From positions 4,061 to 68,060 of the forward strand of contig JAZQPJ010000034.1 in the NCBI GenBank assembly GCA_045628525.1: 64,000 bases of DNA, in the 5' to 3' direction. Made by a program: the position numbers and the translations under genes. The stretch comes from Bacteroidales bacterium. Its GTDB lineage: Bacteria; Bacteroidota; Bacteroidia; Bacteroidales; UBA3663. The notes below the pieces were generated by a model, which saw only the letters and a program-made list of their open reading frames with translations, was not told where the DNA came from and made no database searches. Positions 1 through 55,387 of this stretch are shown one piece after another. Numbering within the stretch: the stretch's first letter is position 1; each line of letters begins with the position of its first letter.

Positions 1-2
1 TG

Positions 3-1634
3 CTGGCTCCTGTGACGTGGGAACTCATTGAACCTGTGGAGGGAAAGTACGATTTCTCTTCGCTTGACAATATCATCCAGGAGGCGCGACGGAACGACCT
101 GAAGGTGGTGGTGCTGTGGTTCGGCGCATGGAAGAACTCGATGAGCTGCTATGCGCCCGAGTGGTTCAAACGCGACGTGAAGCGTTTCCCTCGTGTGCAT
201 GATCGCAACGGCCTGCCGATGGAGGAGGCCTCTTCGCTCTCGGCCAATGTGCTGGAGGCGGACAAGCGTGTGTTCTGCCAGATCATGCAGCACATCAGGG
301 AGGTGGACAGCGAGGAGCAGACCATCGTGATGGTGCAGGTGGAGAATGAGATAGGCATGATCAAGGAGCCGCGGGACTACAGCAAGGATGCGACGAAGAT
401 GTATGAGAGCCAGGTGCCGAAGGAGCTGACAGAGTATCTGCTAAGTTTGAAGGGTTTGAAGGGTTCGAAGGGTTCGAAGGGTTTGAAGGGTTCGAAAGAT
501 CCGAATGGTTCAAAGGTTACTCTCAAACCCCTCAAACCTTTCAAACCCCTCAAGCTTAATAATCCTCGCTTAGAGATCTCGACCGACAAGGGCAGCTGGG
601 CAGAGCTCTTTGGCAACGACATGTATGCCGAGGAGATCTTCCAGGCATGGACCTATGCCGTCTATGTGGAGGAACTTGCCAAGGCGGGCAAGGCCATCTA
701 TGACCTGCCGATGTATGTGAATGTGGCGCTCAACAGCCGTGGCCGTAAGCCTGGCGAATACCCTTCGGCCGGCCCTTTGGCGCACCTCATCGACATCTGG
801 CATTGTGGCGCACCAAGCATCGCTGTCCTCGGCCTTGACCTCTACGACAAGGGTTATCGCGACTGGACGGCTAAGTATCATCTGCCTAACAATCCGCTCT
901 TTATCCCGGAAATCCGTCTCGAAGATCAGGATGCCATGCGTGCGCTCTATGCCTTCGGTCATCATGACGCGATGGGCTTCTGCCCGTTCTCGATCGAGGA
1001 TTATCCGCTGTATCTTAACTCTTCAAACTCCTCAAACTCTTCAAACTCCTCAAACTCCCTCGACCTCTCACTCGATGATCAGCTGAACGCGTTTTCTTCT
1101 AATAGTTCATCCCTTTCGCCTTTGGCAGCATCTTATAAATTGCTAAGACAAGCCGAGCCCTTGATCCTCGCACACCAAGGCACCGACGACATGGATGCCG
1201 TTATCCTCGACAACGACATGCGCGAAGCTGATATCCGTACGCCTGACGGCATCACCCTGCACGTAAAGCACAGCTACTCACTTGGTTGGGAGCCAGGCGC
1301 GCAATCGGACACTTGGCCGGAAGCTGCCTGCATCATCGTCCGTCAGGGCAAGGAGGATTATGTCGTGATCGGGTCGGGCGTGGTCATAACTTATGAGAAG
1401 AGTATGGAGGGGTTGAGGGGTTTGAAGGGTTCGAAAGGTTTGAGAGGTTCGAAGGGTTTGAGGGGTTCGAATGTTCAGATCGGCCTTGCCAAGTGCGAGC
1501 AAGTAGAATATGACAAGGATGGCAACATGCAGATCATCCGTCACCTGAGTGGCGATCAGACGCACCAGGGCCGTCACGTCCGCATCCCGGTAGGAGAGTA
1601 CGCGATCCAGCACTTCCGCCTTTACGAATACTAA
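3..1634 (+). CDS. Glycoside hydrolase, clan GH-A beta-galactosidase-like (GH35/42-type catalytic region with DUF5597-like C-terminal part); 5' end cut by the window edge
   Basis: The frame is open to the window start. It contains WELIEPVEGKYDFSSLD, VVLWFGAWKN and the catalytic-type VQVENEIG motif. Three repeat insertions interrupt it in frame. Confidence 0.6.
   Translation: MAPVTWELIEPVEGKYDFSSLDNIIQEARRNDLKVVVLWFGAWKNSMSCYAPEWFKRDVKRFPRVHDRNGLPMEEASSLSANVLEADKRVFCQIMQHIREVDSEEQTIVMVQVENEIGMIKEPRDYSKDATKMYESQVPKELTEYLLSLKGLKGSKGSKGLKGSKDPNGSKVTLKPLKPFKPLKLNNPRLEISTDKGSWAELFGNDMYAEEIFQAWTYAVYVEELAKAGKAIYDLPMYVNVALNSRGRKPGEYPSAGPLAHLIDIWHCGAPSIAVLGLDLYDKGYRDWTAKYHLPNNPLFIPEIRLEDQDAMRALYAFGHHDAMGFCPFSIEDYPLYLNSSNSSNSSNSSNSLDLSLDDQLNAFSSNSSSLSPLAASYKLLRQAEPLILAHQGTDDMDAVILDNDMREADIRTPDGITLHVKHSYSLGWEPGAQSDTWPEAACIIVRQGKEDYVVIGSGVVITYEKSMEGLRGLKGSKGLRGSKGLRGSNVQIGLAKCEQVEYDKDGNMQIIRHLSGDQTHQGRHVRIPVGEYAIQHFRLYEY
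445..557. repeat. Intragenic self-complementary element: six GTTYGAAGG 9-mers, a 23-bp centre, then four CTCAAACCY-type 9-mers (reverse complement of the left arm)
   Basis: Direct reading of the sequence. Period 9 keeps the frame, and it translates as SLKGLKGSKGSKGLKGSKDPNGSKVTLKPLKPFKPLKL. Confidence 0.85.
1019..1063. repeat. Intragenic 9-bp tandem repeat CTCYTCAAA x4-5 (C-strand orientation of the TTYGARG family)
   Basis: Direct reading; translates as NSSNSSNSSNSSNS. Confidence 0.85.
1407..1472. repeat. Intragenic 9-bp tandem repeat GARRGGTTY x7 (G-strand orientation), the inverted partner of 1019-1063
   Basis: Direct reading; translates as EGLRGLKGSKGLRGSKGLRGSN. Positions 1429-1446 are identical to 26459-26476. 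Confidence 0.85.
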
Positions 1635-1683
1635 CTACTTTCCATAGCCAATGCTGATTATCGGCACTTTCGATGAGTGTGCT

Positions 1684-3027
1684 TCATGATGCCTTGTTCT
1701 GATCGCTGATAGACAGCGCAATAATGATGGTCAAGCCGCCGCCATCGGTTTCTTCGGCCACGGCACTTCCACCATATTGCACGGCGATGTTCTTGACGAT
1801 GGCAAGGCCAAGACCAGTGCCACCTAACTTGCGGCTTCGCCCTTTATCGACGCGATAGAAGCGCTCGAAGAGGTGGGGGAGGTGTGCAGCAGGTACGCCT
1901 ACGCCATTGTCGCTGAACGTGAAGATGTAGTCAGATGACGTCATTGCAGCAGATACCGTGAAGCGTGTGGCACCCATGGCGTATGCCAGTGTGTTGTCGA
2001 AGATATTGCGAAACAGGGAGTAAATCAGGGCGGAATCGCCTTGCATGGGCATTGAACCAGGGAGCGAAAGCATATCGAGTTCAATGCCTTGTTCTGTGAA
2101 TTTGGCTTTTGTCTCGTCGGCGATGCCTTGCAGGATTTCTGCTGCATCGACTTTGGTCGTAGGGCGTACGATGGCGGCTTCGTCCAGACGTGTGAGCATG
2201 GACATGTCCTGTAGCAAGCGGCTCATGCGCTGGCTTTGCGCATAGCAGCGTGTGAGGAAAGACTGCCGTTGTTGGGCAGAAAGTGAATCGCCGGCAGAGA
2301 TCATCGTCTCAAGGTAGCCTTCGATGGCGGCAGCCGGCGTCTTGAGCTCGTGGGCGGCATTTTCGGTGAGCTGGCGCTTGATGCGACGCTTGTCCTCCTC
2401 GCTGCGATGCAATCTGAACCGAAGATAAAGCACCACGGCTATGAGCACGAGGATGCCTGCGGTGTAATAGAAAAAAGTGTAGTCGCGTTCGAGCGAAGAG
2501 GTAAGAGGGGCGGAATAGGGTACGGACGAGCGGATAATAAGACCCTTTCCCCAACCCTCCTCTGCACCCCTTCTATCCCCCGAACAGCGGGGGCAGAAAT
2601 CCGTAATCGGGAGGGAGTATTGGTTACTATCTATAGCGAAATAGGTTGCCGAATAGAAATACTTTTCACCATTGGTTTCGGACGCTCGCTTAATGTCAAA
2701 TCCAGAACCATACTGAAGGGCATCCTGAATCTCCTTGCGGAGAAGGTGGTTGCCCATTTTCTTTACATCTTTCTCCTGGCTATCATAGAGCACATTTCCT
2801 TCAGTGTCAATTATTGTGATGCGAAATGTGGTATCTATTTCTCCCTCCCCATTACGGGTGAGGGTTGGGGAGAGGGTCCTATAGTTATTGAGCTGCAGCT
2901 GCGAGTGCAGGATATCGACGCGAAACGCATGTTCACGCTGGTATTCATACACGCCGAAGCTGATGGTAAACAATGCCACCAGCAGCGTAACAATCAGAAA
3001 CAGATTATTTTTCGAACGAATATCCAT
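1684..3027 (-). CDS. Sensor histidine kinase (two TM segments, periplasmic sensor region, HisKA + HATPase_c)
   Basis: H-box ENAAHELKTP and G-box GGTGLGLAIVKNI. The start was chosen at MDIRSKNN (ATG 3027, overlapping the regulator's 3' end); ATG 3057 is an alternative. Confidence 0.85.
   Translation of the reverse strand: MDIRSKNNLFLIVTLLVALFTISFGVYEYQREHAFRVDILHSQLQLNNYRTLSPTLTRNGEGEIDTTFRITIIDTEGNVLYDSQEKDVKKMGNHLLRKEIQDALQYGSGFDIKRASETNGEKYFYSATYFAIDSNQYSLPITDFCPRCSGDRRGAEEGWGKGLIIRSSVPYSAPLTSSLERDYTFFYYTAGILVLIAVVLYLRFRLHRSEEDKRRIKRQLTENAAHELKTPAAAIEGYLETMISAGDSLSAQQRQSFLTRCYAQSQRMSRLLQDMSMLTRLDEAAIVRPTTKVDAAEILQGIADETKAKFTEQGIELDMLSLPGSMPMQGDSALIYSLFRNIFDNTLAYAMGATRFTVSAAMTSSDYIFTFSDNGVGVPAAHLPHLFERFYRVDKGRSRKLGGTGLGLAIVKNIAVQYGGSAVAEETDGGGLTIIIALSISDQNKAS
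2541..2617. repeat. C-tract/G-tract palindromic element (long form) inside the kinase sensor region
   Basis: GACCCTTTCCCCAACCCTCC...CCCCCGAACAGCGGGGG...CCGTAATCGGGAGGGAG. It is read through in frame. Confidence 0.75.
2841..2879. repeat. C-tract/G-tract palindromic element (short form, inverted relative to 2541-2617)
   Basis: The reverse complement reads GACCCTCTCCCCAACCCTCACCCGTAATGGGGAGGGAG, with the same termini as the long form. Confidence 0.75.
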
Positions 3028-3739
3028 AGCCGAACCTTGTGCGAATACATTTGCCATATTGTCCGATCTTCTTGCGCAGACGCGTGATGTTGACATCCAC
3101 CGTGCGGTCGAGCACGTACGCATCATTTGGCCAGATGCGTGTCAGGATCTCCTCGCGAGAGAAGACGGTGTGTGGGTGTTCCAGGAGCAAATCAAGCAGC
3201 TCATATTCAAGCTTTGTGAGCGTCACCTCCGTACCATCCACATGGCAGGTCTTTGCCAACGTATCGAGCACCAAACCCTCATAACTCACCTTATTGTCGC
3301 TGTTATTTGTTTCTTTGGCAGGGAGCTCTTTATCTTTTTCACTCTTTACCTCTTTCGCTTGCTGAGATGCAGCGCGGCGAAGCACCGCCTTGACCCTCGC
3401 CTTCACCTCACTCAATCTGAATGGCTTCGTGATATAGTCATCCGACCCCAGCGAGAATCCGTCCAGCACATCCTTCTCCTCGGTCTTTGCCGTGCAGAAG
3501 ATGATGGGGATTGCTGCCAACGCCGCATCCTGTTTCATCAGTTTGGCCACCTCAAACCCGCTGAGGCCCTCCATCATCACGTCGAGCAGCACTAGGTCAA
3601 ATGCCTCGGCCTTGAGCATGACAAGCGCTTCCTCGCCCGATGCCGCGGTCTCGACCGTGTACCCTTCCGTCTGGAGGTTATACTGCAGGATGTCGCAGAT
3701 GTCCTGCTCATCATCCACTATCAAAATTCGTTCGTTCAT
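3005..3739 (-). CDS. OmpR/PhoB-family DNA-binding response regulator
   Basis: Receiver domain (ILIVDDEQDI, LLDVMMEGLSG) and a winged-helix C-terminus (LTKLEYELL...VDVNITRLRKKI). The start was set at MNERIL because a -7 box lies inside the longer ORF. Confidence 0.9.
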   Translation of the reverse strand: MNERILIVDDEQDICDILQYNLQTEGYTVETAASGEEALVMLKAEAFDLVLLDVMMEGLSGFEVAKLMKQDAALAAIPIIFCTAKTEEKDVLDGFSLGSDDYITKPFRLSEVKARVKAVLRRAASQQAKEVKSEKDKELPAKETNNSDNKVSYEGLVLDTLAKTCHVDGTEVTLTKLEYELLDLLLEHPHTVFSREEILTRIWPNDAYVLDRTVDVNITRLRKKIGQYGKCIRTRFGYGYSFEK

Positions 3740-3758
3740 AGTTCCATGTTTGTGGGTG

Positions 3759-3766
3759 CAAAGATA
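3759..3766 (-). promoter_or_regulatory. Bacteroidetes-type -7 promoter box (TATCTTTG) for the response regulator/kinase operon
   Basis: Matches the TAnnTTTG consensus about 20 nt upstream of ATG 3739. Confidence 0.5.
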
Positions 3767-3913
3767 ATACATTTTTGTTACAAAGTTGTGACGAATGCCT
3801 GGGAAGTGAATTTTTTTGCTAATCGCACACTCTATTTTCGCGTATTTTAGTCAAAATTGCATTCATTTCATCCATTTAGTTCTCAAAACTGCGGAACTTT
3901 GAAGAAAAAGACT

Positions 3914-3921
3914 TACCTTTG
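3914..3921 (+). promoter_or_regulatory. -7 promoter box (TACCTTTG) upstream of the toxin-antitoxin pair
   Basis: Matches TAnnTTTG about 60 nt upstream of ATG 3984. Confidence 0.4.
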
Positions 3922-3983
3922 CACTCAAATGGTCGCGAAGAACAAAAGCGACACTCATAACAATCGAACAAAATCATACTACT

Positions 3984-4223
3984 ATGGCAACATTGGCAAT
4001 ACAACCCGAAGCAAATCAGATGGTCGTTACATTCAGCGATGTTAGCGTTATGCAGCAAGTAAAGAAAGCCATCGCACTTATGCGAGGCGTAAAATCGGTT
4101 ACTATGCCTCGCAAGAAGCGTATGTGCGGCCTTGATCTCGCCTTGCAGGACGTAGAAGAAGGACGTGTAACTCGGTGGAATAGTGTGGAAGAGATGTTTG
4201 AGCACTTGAATAAAGAGGATTGA
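3984..4223 (+). CDS. Putative type II antitoxin (DinJ/RelB-like C-terminal segment)
   Basis: A 79-aa ORF ending 3 nt before a YafQ-family toxin gene. Its C-terminal ...QDVEEGRVTRWNSVEEMFEHL resembles the DinJ tail. Confidence 0.65.
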   Translation: MATLAIQPEANQMVVTFSDVSVMQQVKKAIALMRGVKSVTMPRKKRMCGLDLALQDVEEGRVTRWNSVEEMFEHLNKED

Positions 4224-4226
4224 TCC

Positions 4227-4499
4227 ATGTACACAGTCATCACTTCAAAAGCTTTTGAGAAGGATTATAAAAGGTGCCAAAAGCGAGGCTTGAATATTCG
4301 ACTACTTCAGGAAGCAATCACCCTTCTGGCCAATGACGGAAAACTTCCACCAGAATATCGCCCACACATCCTAAGCGGCAAGTATGCCGGCATCTGGGAA
4401 TGCCATATCAAGGGTGACTGGCTCATGACATGGCGACAGTATGATGACCGTCTTGAGCTGCTCATGCTCAATACGGGTACACATTCCGACTTATTTTAG
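4227..4499 (+). CDS. yafQ: Type II toxin, YafQ/RelE family mRNA interferase
   Basis: 90 aa, collinear with E. coli YafQ (KDYKRCQKRG..., ECHIKGDWLM..., C-terminal NTGTHSDLF versus TGTHAALF). Confidence 0.85.
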   Translation: MYTVITSKAFEKDYKRCQKRGLNIRLLQEAITLLANDGKLPPEYRPHILSGKYAGIWECHIKGDWLMTWRQYDDRLELLMLNTGTHSDLF

Positions 4500-4527
4500 T
4501 TGCTCAAAGTGGTACATCTTTTTTATT

Positions 4528-4565
4528 AGGCCCTGCCTCCCAAGAACATCCAGGAGGCAGGGCCT
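4528..4565. terminator. Convergent-gene hairpin (13-bp perfect stem AGGCCCTGCCTCC/GGAGGCAGGGCCT)
   Basis: Lies between the yafQ stop and the nptA stop. There is no canonical U-tract on either side. Confidence 0.5.
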
Positions 4566-4570
4566 TAATA

Positions 4571-6253
4571 TTACTTGTTCACAGCAGCTTCTGCCTGCAC
4601 CACATTGATCGCATAGTCGCCTATCTTCTCGCATTCGGCAATGAAGTCGTTGAAGAAGGCGCCGAGGCGGTAGCTGTACTTGCCCTCGTTCACGGCGATG
4701 AGGTTCTCCTCGCGGCTGATGGTGCGCAGGGAGTTGATCTCGTTTTCTGCCTCGATGTTGTCGCGCAGATTGATTACCACGTGTTCAGGGTCGGTGATCA
4801 CCTGACGCATCTCATGCAGGGCGCGCTCGGTGAGGTCGAGCATCTGGGTCATCTGCATCTTCTGGTAGTCGGTGAAGTCGCTCGGCTCATTCTCACGCTT
4901 GCGCTGCAGGGTACGGCCGAGGTGGAACATCGAGTCTCCGATCGACTCCAGCTCGTCCACCTGTCGCAGCATCTGGGCGATGTGGTTCTTCGAGTAAGCC
5001 GAGAGCCTGCCCTCCGACACCTTGCGCAGGTAGCCGGCAATCTCCACCTCCATGTTGTCGGTGATCTGCTCGTAGTGTTCCAGTCGCTTGTATTCCTCGG
5101 CAAAGTCGCTCTCCTTCTTGGCCGAAAGGGCGCGGTTCACCATGTCGAGCATCTTCTGGCAACGCTCGGCCATGACACCCACCTCGTTGCGTGCCTGCAG
5201 GATGGAGAGCTCGGCCGTAGAGAGCAAGCCGCCGCTGATGTAGCGCAGACGTGTCTCCTCCTGCGTCTCCTTCTGAGGCAGCACGCGGCACACCAGCTGC
5301 TCAATCTGCTTGACGAAGCCAATCAATAACAAGGTGTTGAATACGTTGAATGCCGTGTGGAAGGCCGAGAGCTTGAAGAGGTCGTTGTTGCCAGCGCCCA
5401 TCACATGCTCCACGAACCATGACACGCCGTTGCAGAACGGATAGAACATCAGGAGCACCACCACCACGCCGAACACATTGAAGAACATGTGCGCGAGTGC
5501 CGCGCGTCGTGCCTGCGTGTTGGCGGTCAGGGAGGCGATGAATGCCGTGATCGTCGTACCGATGTTCTGACCCATGGCCAAAGCCGCTGCCTGCTCAAGG
5601 CCGAAGCCGGGGATCTGCATGTCGAACAGCATCAACGTGATGGCCATCGTGGCGGCCGATGCCTGAACGAGCATGGTAACCAATGCACCCACTACCACGA
5701 AAAGCAAGATTGTGAGGAAACCGCCATCGGCCACGCCTGCCAGCATCTGTGCCACCAGTTCGCCGATGTTCAGATCGGTGGCCGATTGCTGCAGGAAACT
5801 CAAGCCCATGAACAGGAACGAGAAGCCGAAGATGAACTCGCCGATCGACTTGCGATGCGAATTGCTGCTGAAGATGAGCGGAATGCCAAAGGCAAGCAAC
5901 GGCAACGCCAGGGCGGCGATATTGACCTTGAAACCGACAGCCGAGATGATCCATGCCGTCACCGTGGTGCCCACATTGGCACCCATGATCACGCCGATGG
6001 CTTGTGCCAGCGTCATCAATCCGGCATTGACAAACGAAACGACCATCACCGTGGTGGCCGAAGAGGATTGGATCAAGGCGGTCACGGCAATGCCCGTGAG
6101 AACACCCATCACACGATTGCGCGTCATGGCAGCCAGGATGCTGCGCAGACGATCGCCAGCAAATTTCTCAAGACCCTCGCTCATCGTCTTCATGCCGAAG
6201 AGGAAGAGTGCCAGGGATCCGATCAGGGAGAGGAGATTCAGAATTGTATCCAT
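4571..6253 (-). CDS. Na+/phosphate cotransporter family protein (NptA/YjbB type) with a C-terminal PhoU-like helical domain
   Basis: Duplicated Na_Pi_cotrans motifs (QSSSATTVMVVSF, GANVGTTVTAW; GQNIGTTITAF) and a long helical C-terminal half. Confidence 0.9.
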   Translation of the reverse strand: MDTILNLLSLIGSLALFLFGMKTMSEGLEKFAGDRLRSILAAMTRNRVMGVLTGIAVTALIQSSSATTVMVVSFVNAGLMTLAQAIGVIMGANVGTTVTAWIISAVGFKVNIAALALPLLAFGIPLIFSSNSHRKSIGEFIFGFSFLFMGLSFLQQSATDLNIGELVAQMLAGVADGGFLTILLFVVVGALVTMLVQASAATMAITLMLFDMQIPGFGLEQAAALAMGQNIGTTITAFIASLTANTQARRAALAHMFFNVFGVVVVLLMFYPFCNGVSWFVEHVMGAGNNDLFKLSAFHTAFNVFNTLLLIGFVKQIEQLVCRVLPQKETQEETRLRYISGGLLSTAELSILQARNEVGVMAERCQKMLDMVNRALSAKKESDFAEEYKRLEHYEQITDNMEVEIAGYLRKVSEGRLSAYSKNHIAQMLRQVDELESIGDSMFHLGRTLQRKRENEPSDFTDYQKMQMTQMLDLTERALHEMRQVITDPEHVVINLRDNIEAENEINSLRTISREENLIAVNEGKYSYRLGAFFNDFIAECEKIGDYAINVVQAEAAVNK

Positions 6254-6255
6254 AT

Positions 6256-6302
6256 TTTCAAATTACAGATTACAGATTTCAGATTACGAATTACAAATTA
6301 CG
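6256..6302. repeat. Heptamer tandem repeat (GTAATYT/GAAATCT x6-7 on the gene strand) filling the 5' leader of nptA
   Basis: The gene strand reads CGTAATTTGTAATTCGTAATCTGAAATCTGTAATCTGTAATTTGAAAAT-ATG. The 18-mer at 6256-6273 is identical to 57896-57913. Confidence 0.85.
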
Positions 6303-6314
6303 TTATTGACGCTG

Positions 6315-6322
6315 CAAAGATA
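6315..6322 (-). promoter_or_regulatory. -7 promoter box (TATCTTTG) for nptA
   Basis: Matches TAnnTTTG, which places the heptamer repeats in the transcribed leader. Confidence 0.5.
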
Positions 6323-6424
6323 TTACAACAATGTTACAATTTTATGACAAATGCTAAAAAAATGCGCAAATACCCTATTATTAGATCTTATAGTGGTCGT
6401 TTTTGTCTGTCCTCCTCAAAAAAA

Positions 6425-6552
6425 AGTTGAATGGATTAGACGTTAACTTCAGCCCTAGTTGAATGCTTTTAGGCATAACTCCGACAAGAGTTGAATGATT
6501 ATCTCTTAACTCCAAAACCTATTGAGTTCAGCCTTGTCTGGCCTGTTCAACT
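6425..6552. repeat. Three direct repeats in exact 32-bp register (AGTTGAATG-N9/10-TAACTYC) plus a degenerate fourth unit
   Basis: Units start at 6425, 6457 and 6489. The fourth (6521) ends in GTTCAACT, an inverted copy of the AGTTGAA core. Confidence 0.7.
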
Positions 6553-6846
6553 AAATCCAGAGTTTGTTGTTGCGTGGAGGGGGAGAGTATGAAACGATAT
6601 CTGTGAAATGATATGGATAGTATTGGTTTGATATAGTTTATATTTCATGCGGGCGTTTTTAGGTGTTTTGTTTGGGATTTGTCGTGACGACACGTCCCTT
6701 TTTCAATTTCATAATGTCTTGCGTTCTGGATAGATTTGACGATTACAAATGTGAAGAAATGCAATGTTTCTACTTGTTTAGGATGTACAAACCCAAATAT
6801 TTTTATGATTTATTTGATTTTATTTGTAACCGCAAATTATTTTGCG

Positions 6847-6854
6847 TATATTTG
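6847..6854 (+). promoter_or_regulatory. -7 promoter box (TATATTTG) for the DUF3791/DUF3990 module
   Basis: Matches TAnnTTTG about 40 nt upstream of ATG 6896. Confidence 0.45.
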
Positions 6855-6895
6855 CACCGTGATAATGTCGAATCATTAGATTAGTGTGAAGTAAT

Positions 6896-7114
6896 ATGTC
6901 AAAGCAAGAACAAGATAAGTCATATTTCGTTGCTTTCTGCATTGAGCAGTATAAGGCAGCAAAGGGAATGGACGGTGCAGACGTGGCGCAGCTGTTCTTC
7001 CAAAAAGGCGTGGCATCGTACCTCGCTGATAACTTTGATGTGCTTCATACTCAAAGCCGACAGTGGCTTATGGAGGAGATCGATGAATATCTGGAACAAA
7101 ACGAAGAGAAGTAA
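6896..7114 (+). CDS. DUF3791-family small helical protein
   Basis: 72 aa with the family-typical FVAFCIEQYK...YLADNFDVLHTQ. Its stop lies 1 nt before the next start. Confidence 0.75.
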   Translation: MSKQEQDKSYFVAFCIEQYKAAKGMDGADVAQLFFQKGVASYLADNFDVLHTQSRQWLMEEIDEYLEQNEEK

Positions 7115-14874: not shown

Positions 14875-15160
14875 TGCAATAGTCCGACTTGGATCTGAGT
14901 CGGACTATTGCAGATCTGCAAAAGCATGTCGCAAGACAGAATATGTAATTGTAAATCTGCAGCAGTCCGACCTGGATCCAAGTCGGACTGCTGCGGCTCT
15001 TCAATAGTCCGACTTGATACCGTGTCGGACTGTCGCGCGTTTGCAATAGTCCGACTTGGTACCGTGTCGGACTGTCGCACGTTTGCAATAGTCCGACTTG
15101 GGTTCAGGTCGGACTGTCGCGCGTTTGCATTAGTCCGACTTGGGTTCAGGTCGGACTTTT
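14875..15160. repeat. Array of six palindromic units (AGTCCGAC-N10-GTCGGACT); the last four are in exact 42-bp register
   Basis: Left half-sites at 14881, 14964, 15006, 15048, 15090 and 15132. A conserved 16-bp linker GTCGCRCGTTTGCAAT separates units; the first two stems extend to 13-14 bp. Confidence 0.9.
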
Positions 15161-15255
15161 GTAAAACTTAAGTGCATTTAAACCTTCTAATACGATCATC
15201 GTCCTAAAGACAAAGAACGAAACTTGTATTATTAACACTTTAATACCTTAGAATT

Positions 15256-16047
15256 ATGAAGAAGATGTTCATGACCATGATGCTCGTCATCATCGCAGCC
15301 GCACAGGTATTCGCAATGTCAAACAGCAGCATCCGCCAGCACGCCCGTTTCCTGAGCGACCGCATGGCTTACGAGCTCGACCTGACTCCGTATCAGTACG
15401 ACGACGTGTATGAGATCAACTACGACTTCATCTACAGCATCGATCGCTATATGGACGATGTAGTTTATGGCTACCACGATGCCATCGAGCGCTACTATCG
15501 CTTGCTTGACTATCGCAACGAGGATCTGCGCTTCGTACTCAATGCGCGCCAGTATGCCAAGATGCTGACCCGCGACTACTTCTATCGTCCGGTGTATAGC
15601 AATGGCCGGAGCTGGTACTTCCGCATCTATACGATCTACAGCAACCGTAACTTCTTCTATTACGATGCACCAACCGTGTATAAGAGCTATCGCGGCGGTC
15701 ACTCGCAGGGCAGCTACAACCACAACTACTACAACCAGCGCCATCATCATGACAGCTACGGCCAGCAGTCGGCCATCCACGGCTCAAGCAGCTACCAGGA
15801 GCATGGTCGCAACGACTTCGGCGTAAACCGTCGCGAGCGTGGCAACAAGCACCAGAACGAGATCAACAACTACAACAACCACAACCAGCACAACCGCACC
15901 CAGGATCCTCGCTACCAGGATAATAGCGGCAACCACAATTCGCCACAGATCAATAACCGTGGGCAGCAGGGTGGCCAGGGCAAACCGCAGGACAGCAAGC
16001 AGGGCAATAGCCAGCAGGGCGGCGGTGCCAAGTCGGGAAGAAGATGA
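15256..16047 (+). CDS. Secreted protein with a conserved Tyr-rich N-terminal domain and a His/Asn/Gln/Gly-rich tail (paralog of 31673-32719)
   Basis: Signal peptide MKKMFMTMMLVIIAAAQVFA. About 125 aa align with the other copy (DRMAYEL.LTP.QY, MDDVVYGY, LDYRNEDLR). Confidence 0.8.
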   Translation: MKKMFMTMMLVIIAAAQVFAMSNSSIRQHARFLSDRMAYELDLTPYQYDDVYEINYDFIYSIDRYMDDVVYGYHDAIERYYRLLDYRNEDLRFVLNARQYAKMLTRDYFYRPVYSNGRSWYFRIYTIYSNRNFFYYDAPTVYKSYRGGHSQGSYNHNYYNQRHHHDSYGQQSAIHGSSSYQEHGRNDFGVNRRERGNKHQNEINNYNNHNQHNRTQDPRYQDNSGNHNSPQINNRGQQGGQGKPQDSKQGNSQQGGGAKSGRR

Positions 16048-31672: not shown

Positions 31673-32719
31673 TTATCTGCGGCCGCCACGTTCACCATGG
31701 CTTCCACCACCGTGGTTGCCGTGGTTGTTGCCGTTGCCTTCGCTACGGTTGCCATGGCTACCTGATGAACGCTCGTGTGAGCGGGTTCCTCCATTGGCTC
31801 GTTGCTCGTGCGAATGAGCGGCCTGGTTTGAACGCTGATCGTGAGAACGGTTGGCAGAAGAGCGTTCCGATGAACGATGCTGCTTTTCAGGGCGGATATT
31901 GCCTTGGTTGCCATGTTTGTTGTTGCCACCTTGGCCAGCATTGCCATGGTTACCGTGGTTGTTTCCGCCGCCTTGACCGGCATTGCCATGGTCGTTGTGA
32001 CCGCCGTTGCTGTGGTCGTTGCGGTTGCCATGACCACCATTGTTGTGACCGCCGTTGCCATGGTTGTTGTTGTGGCCACCAGGACGTGCGTCGTGGTTGT
32101 TGTGTCCGTTGCTGTTATGATGGCCACCATGATCGCGGTGATGGTAACGATTGCCAAAATCGTTGTGACGATGGGTTTCGTAATGAGGACCGCGGAGGAT
32201 AGGAGCGGGGACAGCGTGATGTGGGTGGCTGTAACGATTCACGTAGAAGCCGCCATGATGATGGTGGTGGCTGTGCAGGCCGTGGTAGGTATGATAGCAG
32301 TTGGGCAAACCATAATAGTAATAGTGATGGTTGTGATATACATCATAGATGCGGAATGCCCAGCGACGTGCTGTGGTGTAGATTGGACGGAAGAAATAGT
32401 CCAAACCCATGAAGATGCCGTACTGTGTAGCGTTGAGGATGTAACGCAGATCCTCGTTGCGGTAGTCGAGATAGTCGTAGTATGTGTCGATGGCATCAGA
32501 GTAGCCATACACTACATCGTCCATCAGGTTATTTGCCTCGTAGATGAAGTCGTAGTTGACCTCAAAGCAGTCTTCGTACTGAGCAGGGGTGAGCTGCAAC
32601 TCGTAAGCCATGCGGTCGGTGAGGAAACGTGCTGTCTCACGAATGCGTGCATCGCTCATTGCCATTACGCTCATCAGGGTGAGCAGCGGCAGGGCCAGGG
32701 TTAGAAAAAGTCTTTTCAT
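31673..32719 (-). CDS. Secreted protein with a conserved Tyr-rich N-terminal domain and a very long His/Asn/Gly-rich tail (paralog of 15256-16047)
   Basis: Signal peptide MKRLFLTLALPLLTLMSVMA. The N-terminal domain is homologous to the 15256 product. The tail is full of HGN/HNN/GGH repeats. Confidence 0.8.
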   Translation of the reverse strand: MKRLFLTLALPLLTLMSVMAMSDARIRETARFLTDRMAYELQLTPAQYEDCFEVNYDFIYEANNLMDDVVYGYSDAIDTYYDYLDYRNEDLRYILNATQYGIFMGLDYFFRPIYTTARRWAFRIYDVYHNHHYYYYGLPNCYHTYHGLHSHHHHHGGFYVNRYSHPHHAVPAPILRGPHYETHRHNDFGNRYHHRDHGGHHNSNGHNNHDARPGGHNNNHGNGGHNNGGHGNRNDHSNGGHNDHGNAGQGGGNNHGNHGNAGQGGNNKHGNQGNIRPEKQHRSSERSSANRSHDQRSNQAAHSHEQRANGGTRSHERSSGSHGNRSEGNGNNHGNHGGGSHGERGGRR

Positions 32720-39737: not shown

Positions 39738-39975
39738 GTTCTTCGATTCGAGACGTCGAAAAGCATGTCCGGAATCTTGGCGAAGGAATTCGAGTTGTCG
39801 AATAGTTTGTCCGGACCTTGTGACAAGGAATTCGAGCCGTCGAAAAGGCTGTCTGGATTCTTGGACAAGGAATTCGAGCCGTCGAAGAGCCTATCCGAAA
39901 CCTCAGACAAAGATTTCGAGCCGTCGAAAAGCATGTCATAGAACTCTGGCAAAGATTTCGAGACGTCGAACTCTA
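39738..39975. repeat. Tandem array of about 5.6 units in exact 42-bp register (ATTCGAGCCGTCGAAAAGSMTGTCYGGAWYCTTGGMCAAGGA)
   Basis: TTCGAG anchors at 39747, 39789, 39831, 39873, 39915 and 39957. Each unit carries TTCGA-N4-TCGAA and CCTTG/CAAGG mini-palindromes. Confidence 0.9.
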
Positions 39976-53652: not shown

Positions 53653-54090
53653 AGCGGTGGCATGTCGAAAGAGATGGAAAAAGCGCTGAAAATGTGCTGA
53701 AAGTTCGCAAATCCATTAGGAATGCCTCTGCAAGTGTGCGGAAGGGCGGAAAATGATTTTTTGCGGCTCAGCAGATCTGCGGAGGGTTTCCAAAAGTTTT
53801 TTTTGCGGCTCCGCACGTTTGCGAAAGCTCTACAAAAAGTTTTTCTGTGACTCTGCAAATCTGCGGAAGCTCTCCAAAAGTTTTTCCAAGGCTCAGCAAA
53901 CTGTCGGAGCTCAGAAAATGTTTTAGCGAAGGTTTTGCAGGTTTGCAGAGGCATTCCTAAAGATTTTGTGTCCGCTCCGCATGTTTGCATCACCTTTTCG
54001 ATGCGATTTGCAGATTCAGTGCGAGCTCGCATCACCTTTTCGATGCGATTTGCAGATTCAATGCAAGTTCGCGTCACTTTTCCTGATGCT
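53653..54090. repeat. Degenerate tandem array of about 10 units holding a 40-42-bp register; the last 2.5 units are near-identical (GCATCACCTTTTCGATGCGATTTGCAGATTCARTGCRAGYTC)
   Basis: Unit anchors at 53695, 53737, 53778, 53820, 53862, 53904, 53944 and 53986/53987, then 54029 and 54071. The final unit runs into the 3' end of the DUF2851 gene. Confidence 0.8.
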
Positions 54091-55387
54091 TGATGAGCCA
54101 GCAGCCAAGTCGGCAATGGAGGCATTTATGAGGCTGGCAATAGTTTTGCGACAGGTGGAGGAGTGCCTGCGTGTCGAGGGCCGACCGTGCAGGGATGCCG
54201 GCCTCAATCCATTGGGTAATGAAGCGGTTCGATTCGGCTGGGAGCTGTTCGAGCAGGGCGAGCGCCTGTTCTGCACGTTCGTCGTCGCCCTGCCAGCGGT
54301 GGTAGGAGAGGAGCGTAGGCACGACGGCGTTGATCAGCACGATCTGGACCGTCTGCTTGCCGATGCCCTTGACCGAGAAGATGCGTTGCAGCTCGTCGAG
54401 CGACTTGGCTTCGAGCGTCTCGCTCAGCAGGTTGGGATGCGTCCAGATGAGGGCGGCAAACGCATCGAGTCGGCATTGTGGCGTGGCTTGTGGACGCAGT
54501 CGGCTCATGCGCCAGGCTGTCGGGTCGATGGGTGTGAGGCTGAATTTGTTGCGAAGGAAGTTGTATTCCTGCTCCAGTTGTCGGCCTTCGGGGGTGGTGA
54601 AGTCGATGAGCCCTGCCTGACCGAGCAGCATGGCGCGCAGCTGGAAGAGGTTGTCGCGATGGTGCAGCAGGCAGCTGTATGGGAGGCTGCGGGCAAGGCG
54701 CTCCATGGCATCGCTGTTGGTGCCCGAGCCGAGGCTACGGAGCAGGATGGTGTAGAAGGCCTCTTCCCACGACTTCATGTCGGTCTGAACCACCTGTTGC
54801 ACACGTTGCATCTTGCCCAACATGCGCTGGATGGCCAGGGCGTTGATCCAGTCGTGCAGGACGATGGCGGGAACCTCGGTGACGCGTGGGCGGCAGTACA
54901 GGAGGGAGCCCGGAGTGAAGGGGGAGGGGTTGCCGGGAATCAGGGGCTTCGTAGCAGATGCCGGCGAAACTGCGTCAACGGAGACAGACTCTGGTGAAAG
55001 AGGGTCAACAGCCGAGGTGCCGGCAGGGACGCAGAGCGCATAGTAGCGGCGCATCACGTCGTTGGGAATGTGCATCACCACGGTCTTGAGTTCGGTGCCA
55101 TCGTGCAGGTGGATCTGCGCATCGGCCTGAAGCACGACGTGGAGGATCACGGAATCGTAGGCGCGGTTGTCCTGATGATGGTGGCGGTACCAGTCGGAAG
55201 CCTTGACGTGCATCTCCACGTTGCCCGCCCAGGTCACGCCGTCGTAGCGCACCTTGGCGTTGAAGAAGTCAGGGCCGACCTCATGGTTGCGAAGGCCGGG
55301 ATGAATGACCTCGAGCGGCTGTCCGTCGAGTGTCACGATGCTATTGAACAGGCGTTGCTGCCACACGAAATACATGAGCTCCTCCAT
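54074..55387 (-). CDS. DUF2851-family protein
   Basis: Starts MEELMYFVWQQRLF... and has HPGLRN..GPDF and VEMHVKASDWYRHHH. The start was set at ATG 55387 downstream of a -7 box. Confidence 0.8.
   Translation of the reverse strand: MEELMYFVWQQRLFNSIVTLDGQPLEVIHPGLRNHEVGPDFFNAKVRYDGVTWAGNVEMHVKASDWYRHHHQDNRAYDSVILHVVLQADAQIHLHDGTELKTVVMHIPNDVMRRYYALCVPAGTSAVDPLSPESVSVDAVSPASATKPLIPGNPSPFTPGSLLYCRPRVTEVPAIVLHDWINALAIQRMLGKMQRVQQVVQTDMKSWEEAFYTILLRSLGSGTNSDAMERLARSLPYSCLLHHRDNLFQLRAMLLGQAGLIDFTTPEGRQLEQEYNFLRNKFSLTPIDPTAWRMSRLRPQATPQCRLDAFAALIWTHPNLLSETLEAKSLDELQRIFSVKGIGKQTVQIVLINAVVPTLLSYHRWQGDDERAEQALALLEQLPAESNRFITQWIEAGIPARSALDTQALLHLSQNYCQPHKCLHCRLGCWLIKHQEK

Follow-up and report, generated by a model that had tools for sequence, protein, structure and literature searches.

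BoxC, which also goes by the names PIT and TMECO, is a repeat rich in G and C that follows the intrastrand-triplex pattern CCCTCNCCC-N3-6-GGGNGAGGG-N3-GGGNGAGGG: one loop separates a C-stem from its complementary G-stem, and a 3-nt loop leads on to a second G-stem (Holder et al. 2015, PMC4666352). Descriptions of it go back to the 1990s (Bachellier et al. 1990s; Hoyne and Maher 2000; both as cited in PMC4666352), and 3,610 copies have been counted in 262 proteobacterial genomes (PMC4666352). The motif is without promoter or terminator activity, is associated with local genomic variability and, in Escherichia coli K-12, is always intergenic; no transposase or integrase remnants lie near the E. 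coli copies, for which no mobility function was found (PMC4666352). Counts differ between strains, from 1 to 143 in E. coli and Enterobacter (PMC4666352). Vsr-like homing endonucleases such as I-Bth0305I (PMC2677866, PMC3239194), which have been grouped with Vsr and DUF559 (PMC3424549), form a second point of comparison. Here we analyze two copies of the BoxC motif in 64,000 nt from a Bacteroidales bacterium (GenBank assembly GCA_045628525.1, contig JAZQPJ010000034.1, positions 4,061 to 68,060; hereafter the window), both of which lie within a gene for a sensor histidine kinase, and the association of this motif with genes encoding DUF559 in other genomes. The element is known; its coding-sequence context is new.

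The two copies were recognized from their ends. Exactly two matches to the 19-nt terminus GACCCTYTCCCCAACCCTC exist in the window, at 2541-2559 on the plus strand and 2860-2878 on the minus strand (0.02 occurrences expected by chance; two or more matches in 0 of 100 shuffles). The 17-nt terminus CCGTAATSGGGAGGGAG likewise has two matches and no more, at 2601-2617 (+) and 2841-2857 (-), with an expectation of 0.10. These termini delimit a 77-bp and a 38-bp copy that are inverted relative to each other with 223 bp between them (coordinates of all features are collected in the table below). The original prediction, made from the sequence alone, had proposed that the two segments share both termini in inverted orientation and that both are translated in frame between the two membrane helices of the kinase. 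All of this held, with the sharing of termini far above chance, except that the short copy had been drawn one base too long, to 2879. Both copies lie inside the 447-aa open reading frame (ORF) on the minus strand, in the periplasmic sensor region between the two predicted helices. Their in-frame translation yields the peptides RTLSPTLTRNGEGEI and SLPITDFCPRCSGDRRGAEEGWGKGL; the kinase reads the long copy as SLPITDFCPRCSGDRRGAEEGWGKGL and the short copy as (R)TLSPTLTRNGEGE(I). A loose search for further copies found 7 in the window against 3.7 expected, which is chance level, the core of the long copy has no second occurrence within the window, and neither Rfam at the gathering threshold nor a tRNA scan gave a match there.

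Both kinase segments belong to the BoxC/PIT/TMECO family, the 38-bp copy as a canonical member and the 77-bp copy as a long-loop variant. The short copy reads CCCTC-CCC ATTAC GGGTGAGGG TTG GGGAGAGGG at 2843-2876, which fits the published pattern with one deletion in the C-stem, and it is the single match to the pattern at one edit in the 64-kb window (0 matches in 50 shuffles). The long copy fails the strict pattern, which allows a first loop of 3-6 nt. Because about 48 nt separate its outer C-stem from its G-stem, with a nested mini-motif inside, we file it as a variant and not as a strict member. The hairpin CCCCCGAACAGCGGGGG that had been noted inside the long copy is indeed present, at 2577-2593. 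Comparable long-loop versions were found at five other loci (L054, L102, L109, L207 and L208). The long core of about 40 nt is nearly identical and has the same nested layout at the 3' end of a DUF559 ORF in L207 and outside annotated domains in L208, so the long form is a subfamily that is not specific to the kinase. Consistent with this, a search with the concatenated peptide of the long insert placed the core in three unrelated proteins, although the known kinase copies were not recovered, probably because of composition filters. A scan of viral contigs with the long core gave no match.

To place the pair among other genomes, one genome per species (596 Gb) was scanned with a 16-nt terminus, which returned at least 120 loci in a search space where a 14-base pattern would also match by chance. 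Among these matches, the 120 loci that were listed span Proteobacteria, Bacteroidota, Planctomycetota, Chloroflexota, candidate-phyla bacteria and others; 90 of them carry the full motif, and there are 83 instances that fit it strictly. Nearly all the listed matches extend into one structure, consisting of the leader CCTCTCCCC, AA and a hairpin CCCTCTCCC-loop-GGGAGAGGG, and their stem variants CCCTCCCC/GGGGAGGG are compensatory. Two proposals of the original prediction have to be revised in this light. The repeat had been taken for a new GC-rich family and is instead the published triplex motif, and the short copy had been described as lacking the core of the long one, where the reverse fits better: the short copy is the canonical form, and the long one is of a long-loop subfamily, marked by a nested mini-motif, that is also found outside the kinase. 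Similar elements had also been suggested in the porin gene (12127-12160) and in the DUF2851 gene (54901-54935), neither of which matches the motif even with two edits per stem. The porin palindrome (gene at 11408-12538, plus strand) encodes YYERPLPSSPYRGGVLH where the L002 orthologue has YYERPLPSSPSRGGVLH, and is thus no obvious recent insertion.

Location within the kinase ORF departs from the intergenic placement reported for BoxC in E. coli. For calls of motifs within genes we used only low-GC, Pfam-confirmed cases, as a heuristic based on stop-free frames is uninformative in GC-rich genomes. By this measure the motif lies within genes for TGT (two copies), a DHH-family protein, an NAD-binding/amine-oxidase-type protein and an IcmF-like mutase (two copies). 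Four of the six reading frames of the short copy are open, judging from the letters, and in-frame survival is therefore easy if the added length is a multiple of three.

Comparison with orthologous kinases supported the proposal that the two segments are insertions. Most of 120 close homologues are 398-414 aa long and lack the segments, compared with 447 aa in the window, and in the protein alignment the two segments are extra material at two periplasmic positions where many orthologues have minimal loops and others have different occupants. Both loops are hot spots of length variation among the 120 homologues. Alignment for empty sites, which had been proposed as a check, succeeded at the DNA level: site 1 is empty in L001 and L003 and site 2 is empty in L003, and other short C/G palindromes occupy site 2 in L001, L002 and L005. 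In L002 and L005 the short motif has degenerated, an argument against selection acting on the insert as such. In P0004, the kinase orthologue of L002, the long segment lies at a different site, in the region of the dimerization and histidine phosphotransfer (DHp) helix.

The pair of motifs also marks the ends of a patch that has been exchanged between diverged alleles. Relative to L001, the window is 97.8% identical in the backbone of the gene and 67% identical in the sensor core, whereas relative to L004 the backbone is 75% and the sensor core 97% identical, with 89% and 93% identity across the motif blocks. On the left, informative sites change from L001-type (last at 2884) to L004-type (first at 2880), and the outer edge of the short motif is at 2878. 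On the right they change back from L004-type (last at 2536) to L001-type (first at 2530), and the outer edge of the long motif is at 2541. The exchanged patch is the interval from motif to motif, with a precision of about 6 nt per end. Because the pair bounds this patch, the motifs behave as recombination or breakage sites. A second mosaic was found between L005 and L003 (backbone 92%, core 66%), which has the same left edge and ends further downstream. An assembly chimera is an unlikely source of the mosaic, as L001 and L004 differ every ~3 nt up to the junction and share no long k-mer. The local variability and rearrangement reported for BoxC are thus found here in two forms, as presence/absence polymorphism among orthologues and as mosaic breakpoints at the motif edges.

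Among the matches listed from the genome scan, 5 of the 120 motif-selected loci contain a gene for DUF559 (PF04480), a Vsr-like PD-(D/E)xK nuclease that matches PDB 3HRL, an "endonuclease-like protein". Motifs lie on both sides of the gene in all five, at distances of 11-77 nt in the four loci measured by pattern; the long-loop copies of L109 were located by eye. In L109 (6750-7700), the inverted repeat runs about 60 nt beyond the long-loop motifs on both sides, making the unit a large palindrome with DUF559 in its loop. We examined the association in an independent sample of 80 metagenomic loci picked by similarity to the DUF559 protein alone. A motif lies within 200 nt of the DUF559 gene in 66 of the 80 loci, compared with 7 of 64 control ORFs from the same loci (either end), and motifs lie on both sides in 39 of 80 loci and 0 of 64 controls. 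Motif density is 4.8 per kb near DUF559 and 0.17 per kb in the far flanks. The arrangement is also regular: of the motifs nearest to the gene, 41 of 52 upstream ones are on the plus strand and 42 of 52 downstream ones on the minus strand, and 34 of 39 flanking pairs are inverted. From motif to motif the outer size is 396-530 bp (median 440 bp). Arms are more similar within a locus (identity 0.83) than between loci (0.72), and in 15 of 34 cases an arm matches its own partner better than any other. The motif and DUF559 are thus associated both statistically and geometrically.

Two further contexts bear on this association. In the DUF559 protein P0244, the C-terminal tail is made up of a motif of the long-loop subfamily, and in L073, a Bacteroidota metagenome-assembled genome, a whole DUF559 domain bounded by motifs lies in frame within a B12-dependent IcmF-like mutase fusion (2011-5940), with no intein or intron evident. 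The same codon position of the mutase is empty in L211 (DNA) and in P0136, P0146, P0141 and P0156 (protein alignment), holds a motif pair without an ORF in L210 (DNA) and in P0130 and P0133 (peptide), and holds motif, DUF559 and motif in L073, P0124 and P0126. All three states are in frame, and two further orthologues (P0138 and P0214) carry DUF559 at another site. In E. coli K-12, the only motif of a 30-kb region lies ~165 nt past the 3' end of ycjD, which encodes DUF559. Variation of the fabI-ycjD spacer was considered as a test of DUF559 mobility and set aside. About 2,080 of 5,426 complete E. coli genomes lose homology ~40 nt before the ycjD-adjacent motif (K-12 locus L126, 16040-16408), but in the one strain inspected (L209) the cause is an unrelated TetR/RND efflux island. 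Because this island follows, the loss of homology neither tests nor supports DUF559 mobility.

Taken together, we consider it likely that BoxC copies were tolerated in the sensor loops of the kinase, and that they bound the exchanged patch; they may ultimately derive from DUF559 units. Each repeat would have entered a surface loop of the periplasmic sensor domain and would have persisted because it is stop-free in the frame used, the reading frame was preserved and the loop tolerates extra residues. Solo motifs and pairs may be ORF-less derivatives of a unit of ~440 bp, composed of two inverted motifs around DUF559, or may have been moved in trans. The DUF559 nuclease, acting on the folded or mismatched motif, would make breaks, and their repair may copy motifs to new sites and drive exchange of the neighboring DNA. 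That DUF559 mobilizes the motif is what we infer from the association and its geometry. More broadly, BoxC motifs could be the terminal inverted repeats that bound a very small (~440 bp) selfish unit, which encodes DUF559 and is present in many phyla, with motif-bounded cassettes exchanged between strains; we put this forward tentatively, as a possibility that may well prove wrong.

Several observations weigh against this reading, and some of them would suit a local origin of the motifs, in which G tracts of the loops, such as those of the conserved LEG codons CTGGAGGG, were extended to palindromes by fold-back or template-switch synthesis with no mobile family involved. Site 1 is not a clean insertion: 21 nt have given way to 45 nt, which adds 24 nt net, GGAGGGA is already present in the empty allele where the G-stem aligns, and there is no sign of a target-site duplication. 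In orthologues, these loops hold many different short C/G palindromes. The copy in P0004 and the copy at site 2 of the window have ~18 nt of upstream flank in common, so intragenic copying fits as well as transposition. Only two copies were found within 64 kb, and because both sit in one gene, dispersal within the source genome is unproven. However, the two copies have 19-nt and 17-nt termini in common, including the loop GTAAT, the composite motif of leader, stems and TTG loop recurs across many phyla, and the long core of ~40 nt is nearly identical in unrelated contigs, and we regard a purely local origin as unlikely. Other adverse points concern the triplex, the patch and the nuclease. A stable triplex was undetected by published in vivo footprinting (PMC4666352), and the single-strand folding of the segments is unexceptional (-7.8 and about -14 to -15 kcal/mol, z of about -1 to -1.6 relative to shuffles, with a tool that models hairpins and no triplexes), so hairpin energy alone does not single them out. 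A very conserved helix ends at the left breakpoint of the patch, and this could bias the positions at which exchange is seen. No DUF559 match was found within the 64-kb window, and the action of the DUF559 nuclease on the motifs is putative. In the proposed unit, inverted motifs lie 320-456 nt apart around DUF559, whereas the kinase pair encloses 223 bp of sensor core; its third strands point outward, a minority geometry among DUF559 units (~20%). The window copies are at most solo derivatives.

The inserts, or the whole swapped cassette, might instead be adaptive protein features selected for changed sensing, with the DNA structure incidental; the original prediction had likewise suggested that the element may alter sensor specificity. 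The sensor core has been re-assorted relative to the backbone at least twice, as expected under diversifying selection, and the two loops are, as described above, hot spots of length variation. Against this, both inserts are predicted to be disordered, their peptides simply translate the repeat, the short motif has decayed in two relatives and is absent in close ones, and the same repeat lies in linkers and loops of unrelated enzymes, which makes selection on the inserts quite improbable. Classical MITEs (miniature inverted-repeat transposable elements) or repetitive extragenic palindromes (REPs), moved in trans by an insertion sequence (IS) transposase or a REP-associated tyrosine transposase (RAYT), would also be short, palindromic, dispersed, variable in presence and able to nest, and DUF559 would then be a frequent passenger or a preferred landing site. 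Yet no target-site duplication marks site 1 (TAT/.../GAT, with 21 nt replaced), and the REP/REPIN head tag GTAG or CGTC is absent, the element ends being GACCCT and the reverse complement of GGGAGGGAG. No transposase lies nearby; no RAYT was noticed among the window ORFs in 1-7000, of which three (kinase, regulator and glycosidase) were scanned with Pfam and no RAYT-specific search was made. The E. coli copies are also free of transposase and integrase remnants (PMC4666352), and the motifs that flank DUF559, with their geometry, fixed spacing and matched arms, fit the termini of a unit better than random landing. We therefore regard this reading as very unlikely. Insertion of BoxC copies into tolerant loops, with exchange of the interval that they bound and a possible origin from DUF559 units, remains our preferred account.

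Table. Features of the kinase locus in the window (positions in the 64,000-nt stretch; TM, triplex motif; AF2, AlphaFold2)
Feature	Position	Strand	Basis
Short solo TM	2841..2878	+	Termini and pattern match
Short copy, C-stem CTCCCTCCCC	2841-2850	+	
Short copy, loop ATTAC	2851-2855	+	
Short copy, G-stem 1 GGGTGAGGG	2856-2864	+	
Short copy, loop TTG	2865-2867	+	
Short copy, G-stem 2 GGGAGAGGG, then TC	2868-2876	+	
Long-loop TM, inverted relative to short copy	2541..2617	-	Termini, direct reading
Long copy, third-strand C tract CCCTTTCCCC, then AA	2543-2552	written on +	
Long copy, outer C-stem CCCTCC	2555-2560	written on +	
Long copy, nested mini-motif CACCCC / TTCTAT / CCCCCG-AACAG-CGGGGG	2565-2593	written on +	
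Long copy, outer G-stem GGGAGGGAG	2609-2617	written on +	
Recombinant patch, ~345 bp, both motifs and sensor core	2531..2883	-	Informative sites relative to L001 and L004
Sensor-domain core, ~74 codons, between the two inverted motifs	2618..2840	-	Weak sCache_like/dCache_1; beta-strands 69-131 in AF2 model
Sensor histidine kinase, 447 aa	1684..3027	-	Pfam, homologues, AF2 model
OmpR-type response regulator, overlaps kinase start	3005..3742	-	Response_reg and Trans_reg_C

The kinase that hosts the motifs has two predicted membrane helices, a small periplasmic PAS/Cache-like domain, HisKA and HATPase_c, and its N-terminal part gives weak Pfam matches to sCache_like and dCache_1. In an AlphaFold2 model (mean pLDDT, the predicted local distance difference test score, of 72.5), pLDDT falls below 50 at just two places in the sensor domain, residues 53-63 and 134-160, and these are the two inserts. 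The first is modeled between the long N-terminal helix and the first strand, and the second in a beta-hairpin loop. The OmpR-type regulator is the two-component partner of the kinase. The order of the two genes is identical in the related contigs L001-L005, where the neighbors are genes for a Na/Pi cotransporter, Porin_O_P and polyphosphate kinase. Because genes for a Na/Pi cotransporter, a phosphate-selective porin and polyphosphate kinase adjoin it in these contigs, the system is probably phosphate-related. Two small genes (79 aa and 90 aa) lie between the two-component system and the Na/Pi cotransporter gene of the window (3984-4499); the matching region holds a YafQ-type toxin gene in L001, is without it at the orthologous locus of L005 and has no gene in L004.

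The window also contains other repeats. The gene for a DUF5597/GH42-like glycosidase (12-1634, plus strand) has in-frame arrays of the 9-bp repeat GGGTTYGAA (LKGSKG...) at 417-560, 1017-1058 and 1383-1502, with which reverse-complement arrays (PLKPFKPLK) form inverted repeats (34 nt, 88%); these are probably the first family to which the original prediction alluded. Three different tandem arrays with a 42-bp period (14875-15175, 39746-39970 and 53750-53967) seemingly lie in or adjoin intergenic DNA, and the first is built of clearly palindromic units (TGCAATAGTCCGACTTGG...GTCGGACT). Short-period degenerate tandem repeats at 10730-10900 and 31690-32100 (9/12/21-bp and 24/48-bp; types TGGCGGTAATG and GCCATGGTTGTTG) look like coding low-complexity sequence. 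Runs of the heptamers ATTACAG/ATTACGA are found near gene ends at 6261-6302, 12350-12377 and 13457-13484. Finally, 15329-15559 and 32416-32646 contain inverted-repeat arms of ~108 nt that are 76-78% complementary and 17 kb apart, and may be paralogous gene segments in opposite orientation.

Three aspects of these results are new relative to the searchable literature, namely the in-frame survival of the motif inside genes in a phylum outside earlier surveys, the sensor patch whose ends fall at motifs, which gives a concrete case of an "instability" earlier reported only statistically, and the strong geometric link to DUF559, which provides a candidate agent behind a very widespread bacterial repeat. 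In the accessible literature that mentions DUF559 (subscription-only work was outside the search), we found no link between DUF559 and BoxC or a triplex motif. DUF559, for which E. coli YcjD and PDB 3HRL are examples, is among the very common domains of unknown function, and the link merges two questions, what spreads BoxC/PIT motifs and what DUF559 does. The BoxC/triplex motif has gone unexplained for ~30 years and was reported to be unlinked to any mobility function. For annotators, when peptides such as LSPTL...GEG or GEGWGEG turn up in a bacterial protein, their source is the repeat.

The locus can be compared with several known systems. With BoxC/PIT/TMECO it shares the architecture and nearly the same sequence, compensatory stem variants, inverted pairs and variable or rearranged neighboring DNA. 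However, the E. coli copies are reported to be always intergenic and to have no link to mobility genes, whereas the copies described here lie in frame within a gene of a Bacteroidales-type genome, one of them is a nested form with a long loop, and the family flanks genes for DUF559 nucleases. Rickettsia palindromic elements, reportedly described by Ogata and colleagues in 2000, are probably unrelated in sequence, longer (~100-150 bp) and found in a different host clade. The likeness to them is functional only and consists of in-frame tolerance; we know of no triplex-type layout of three blocks and no associated nuclease in those elements. The closest analogy to the unit of motif, DUF559 and motif is provided by REPs and REPINs with their RAYTs (PMC3733652), which are also short GC-rich palindromes, occur singly or as inverted pairs, and include a repeat-flanked single-copy gene thought to mobilize them. 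They differ in having GTAG/CGTC head tags and an IS200/IS605-type Y1 transposase, whereas the motif here is untagged and the gene encodes a Vsr-like PD-(D/E)xK nuclease. Vsr-like homing endonucleases belong to the same fold clade, are selfish and can reside inside host genes, but they are found in group I introns or between split-intein halves and have extra DNA-binding domains. The DUF559 units, in contrast, are ~440 bp long, have inverted triplex motifs at their ends and can be read in frame with the host protein with no splicing element.

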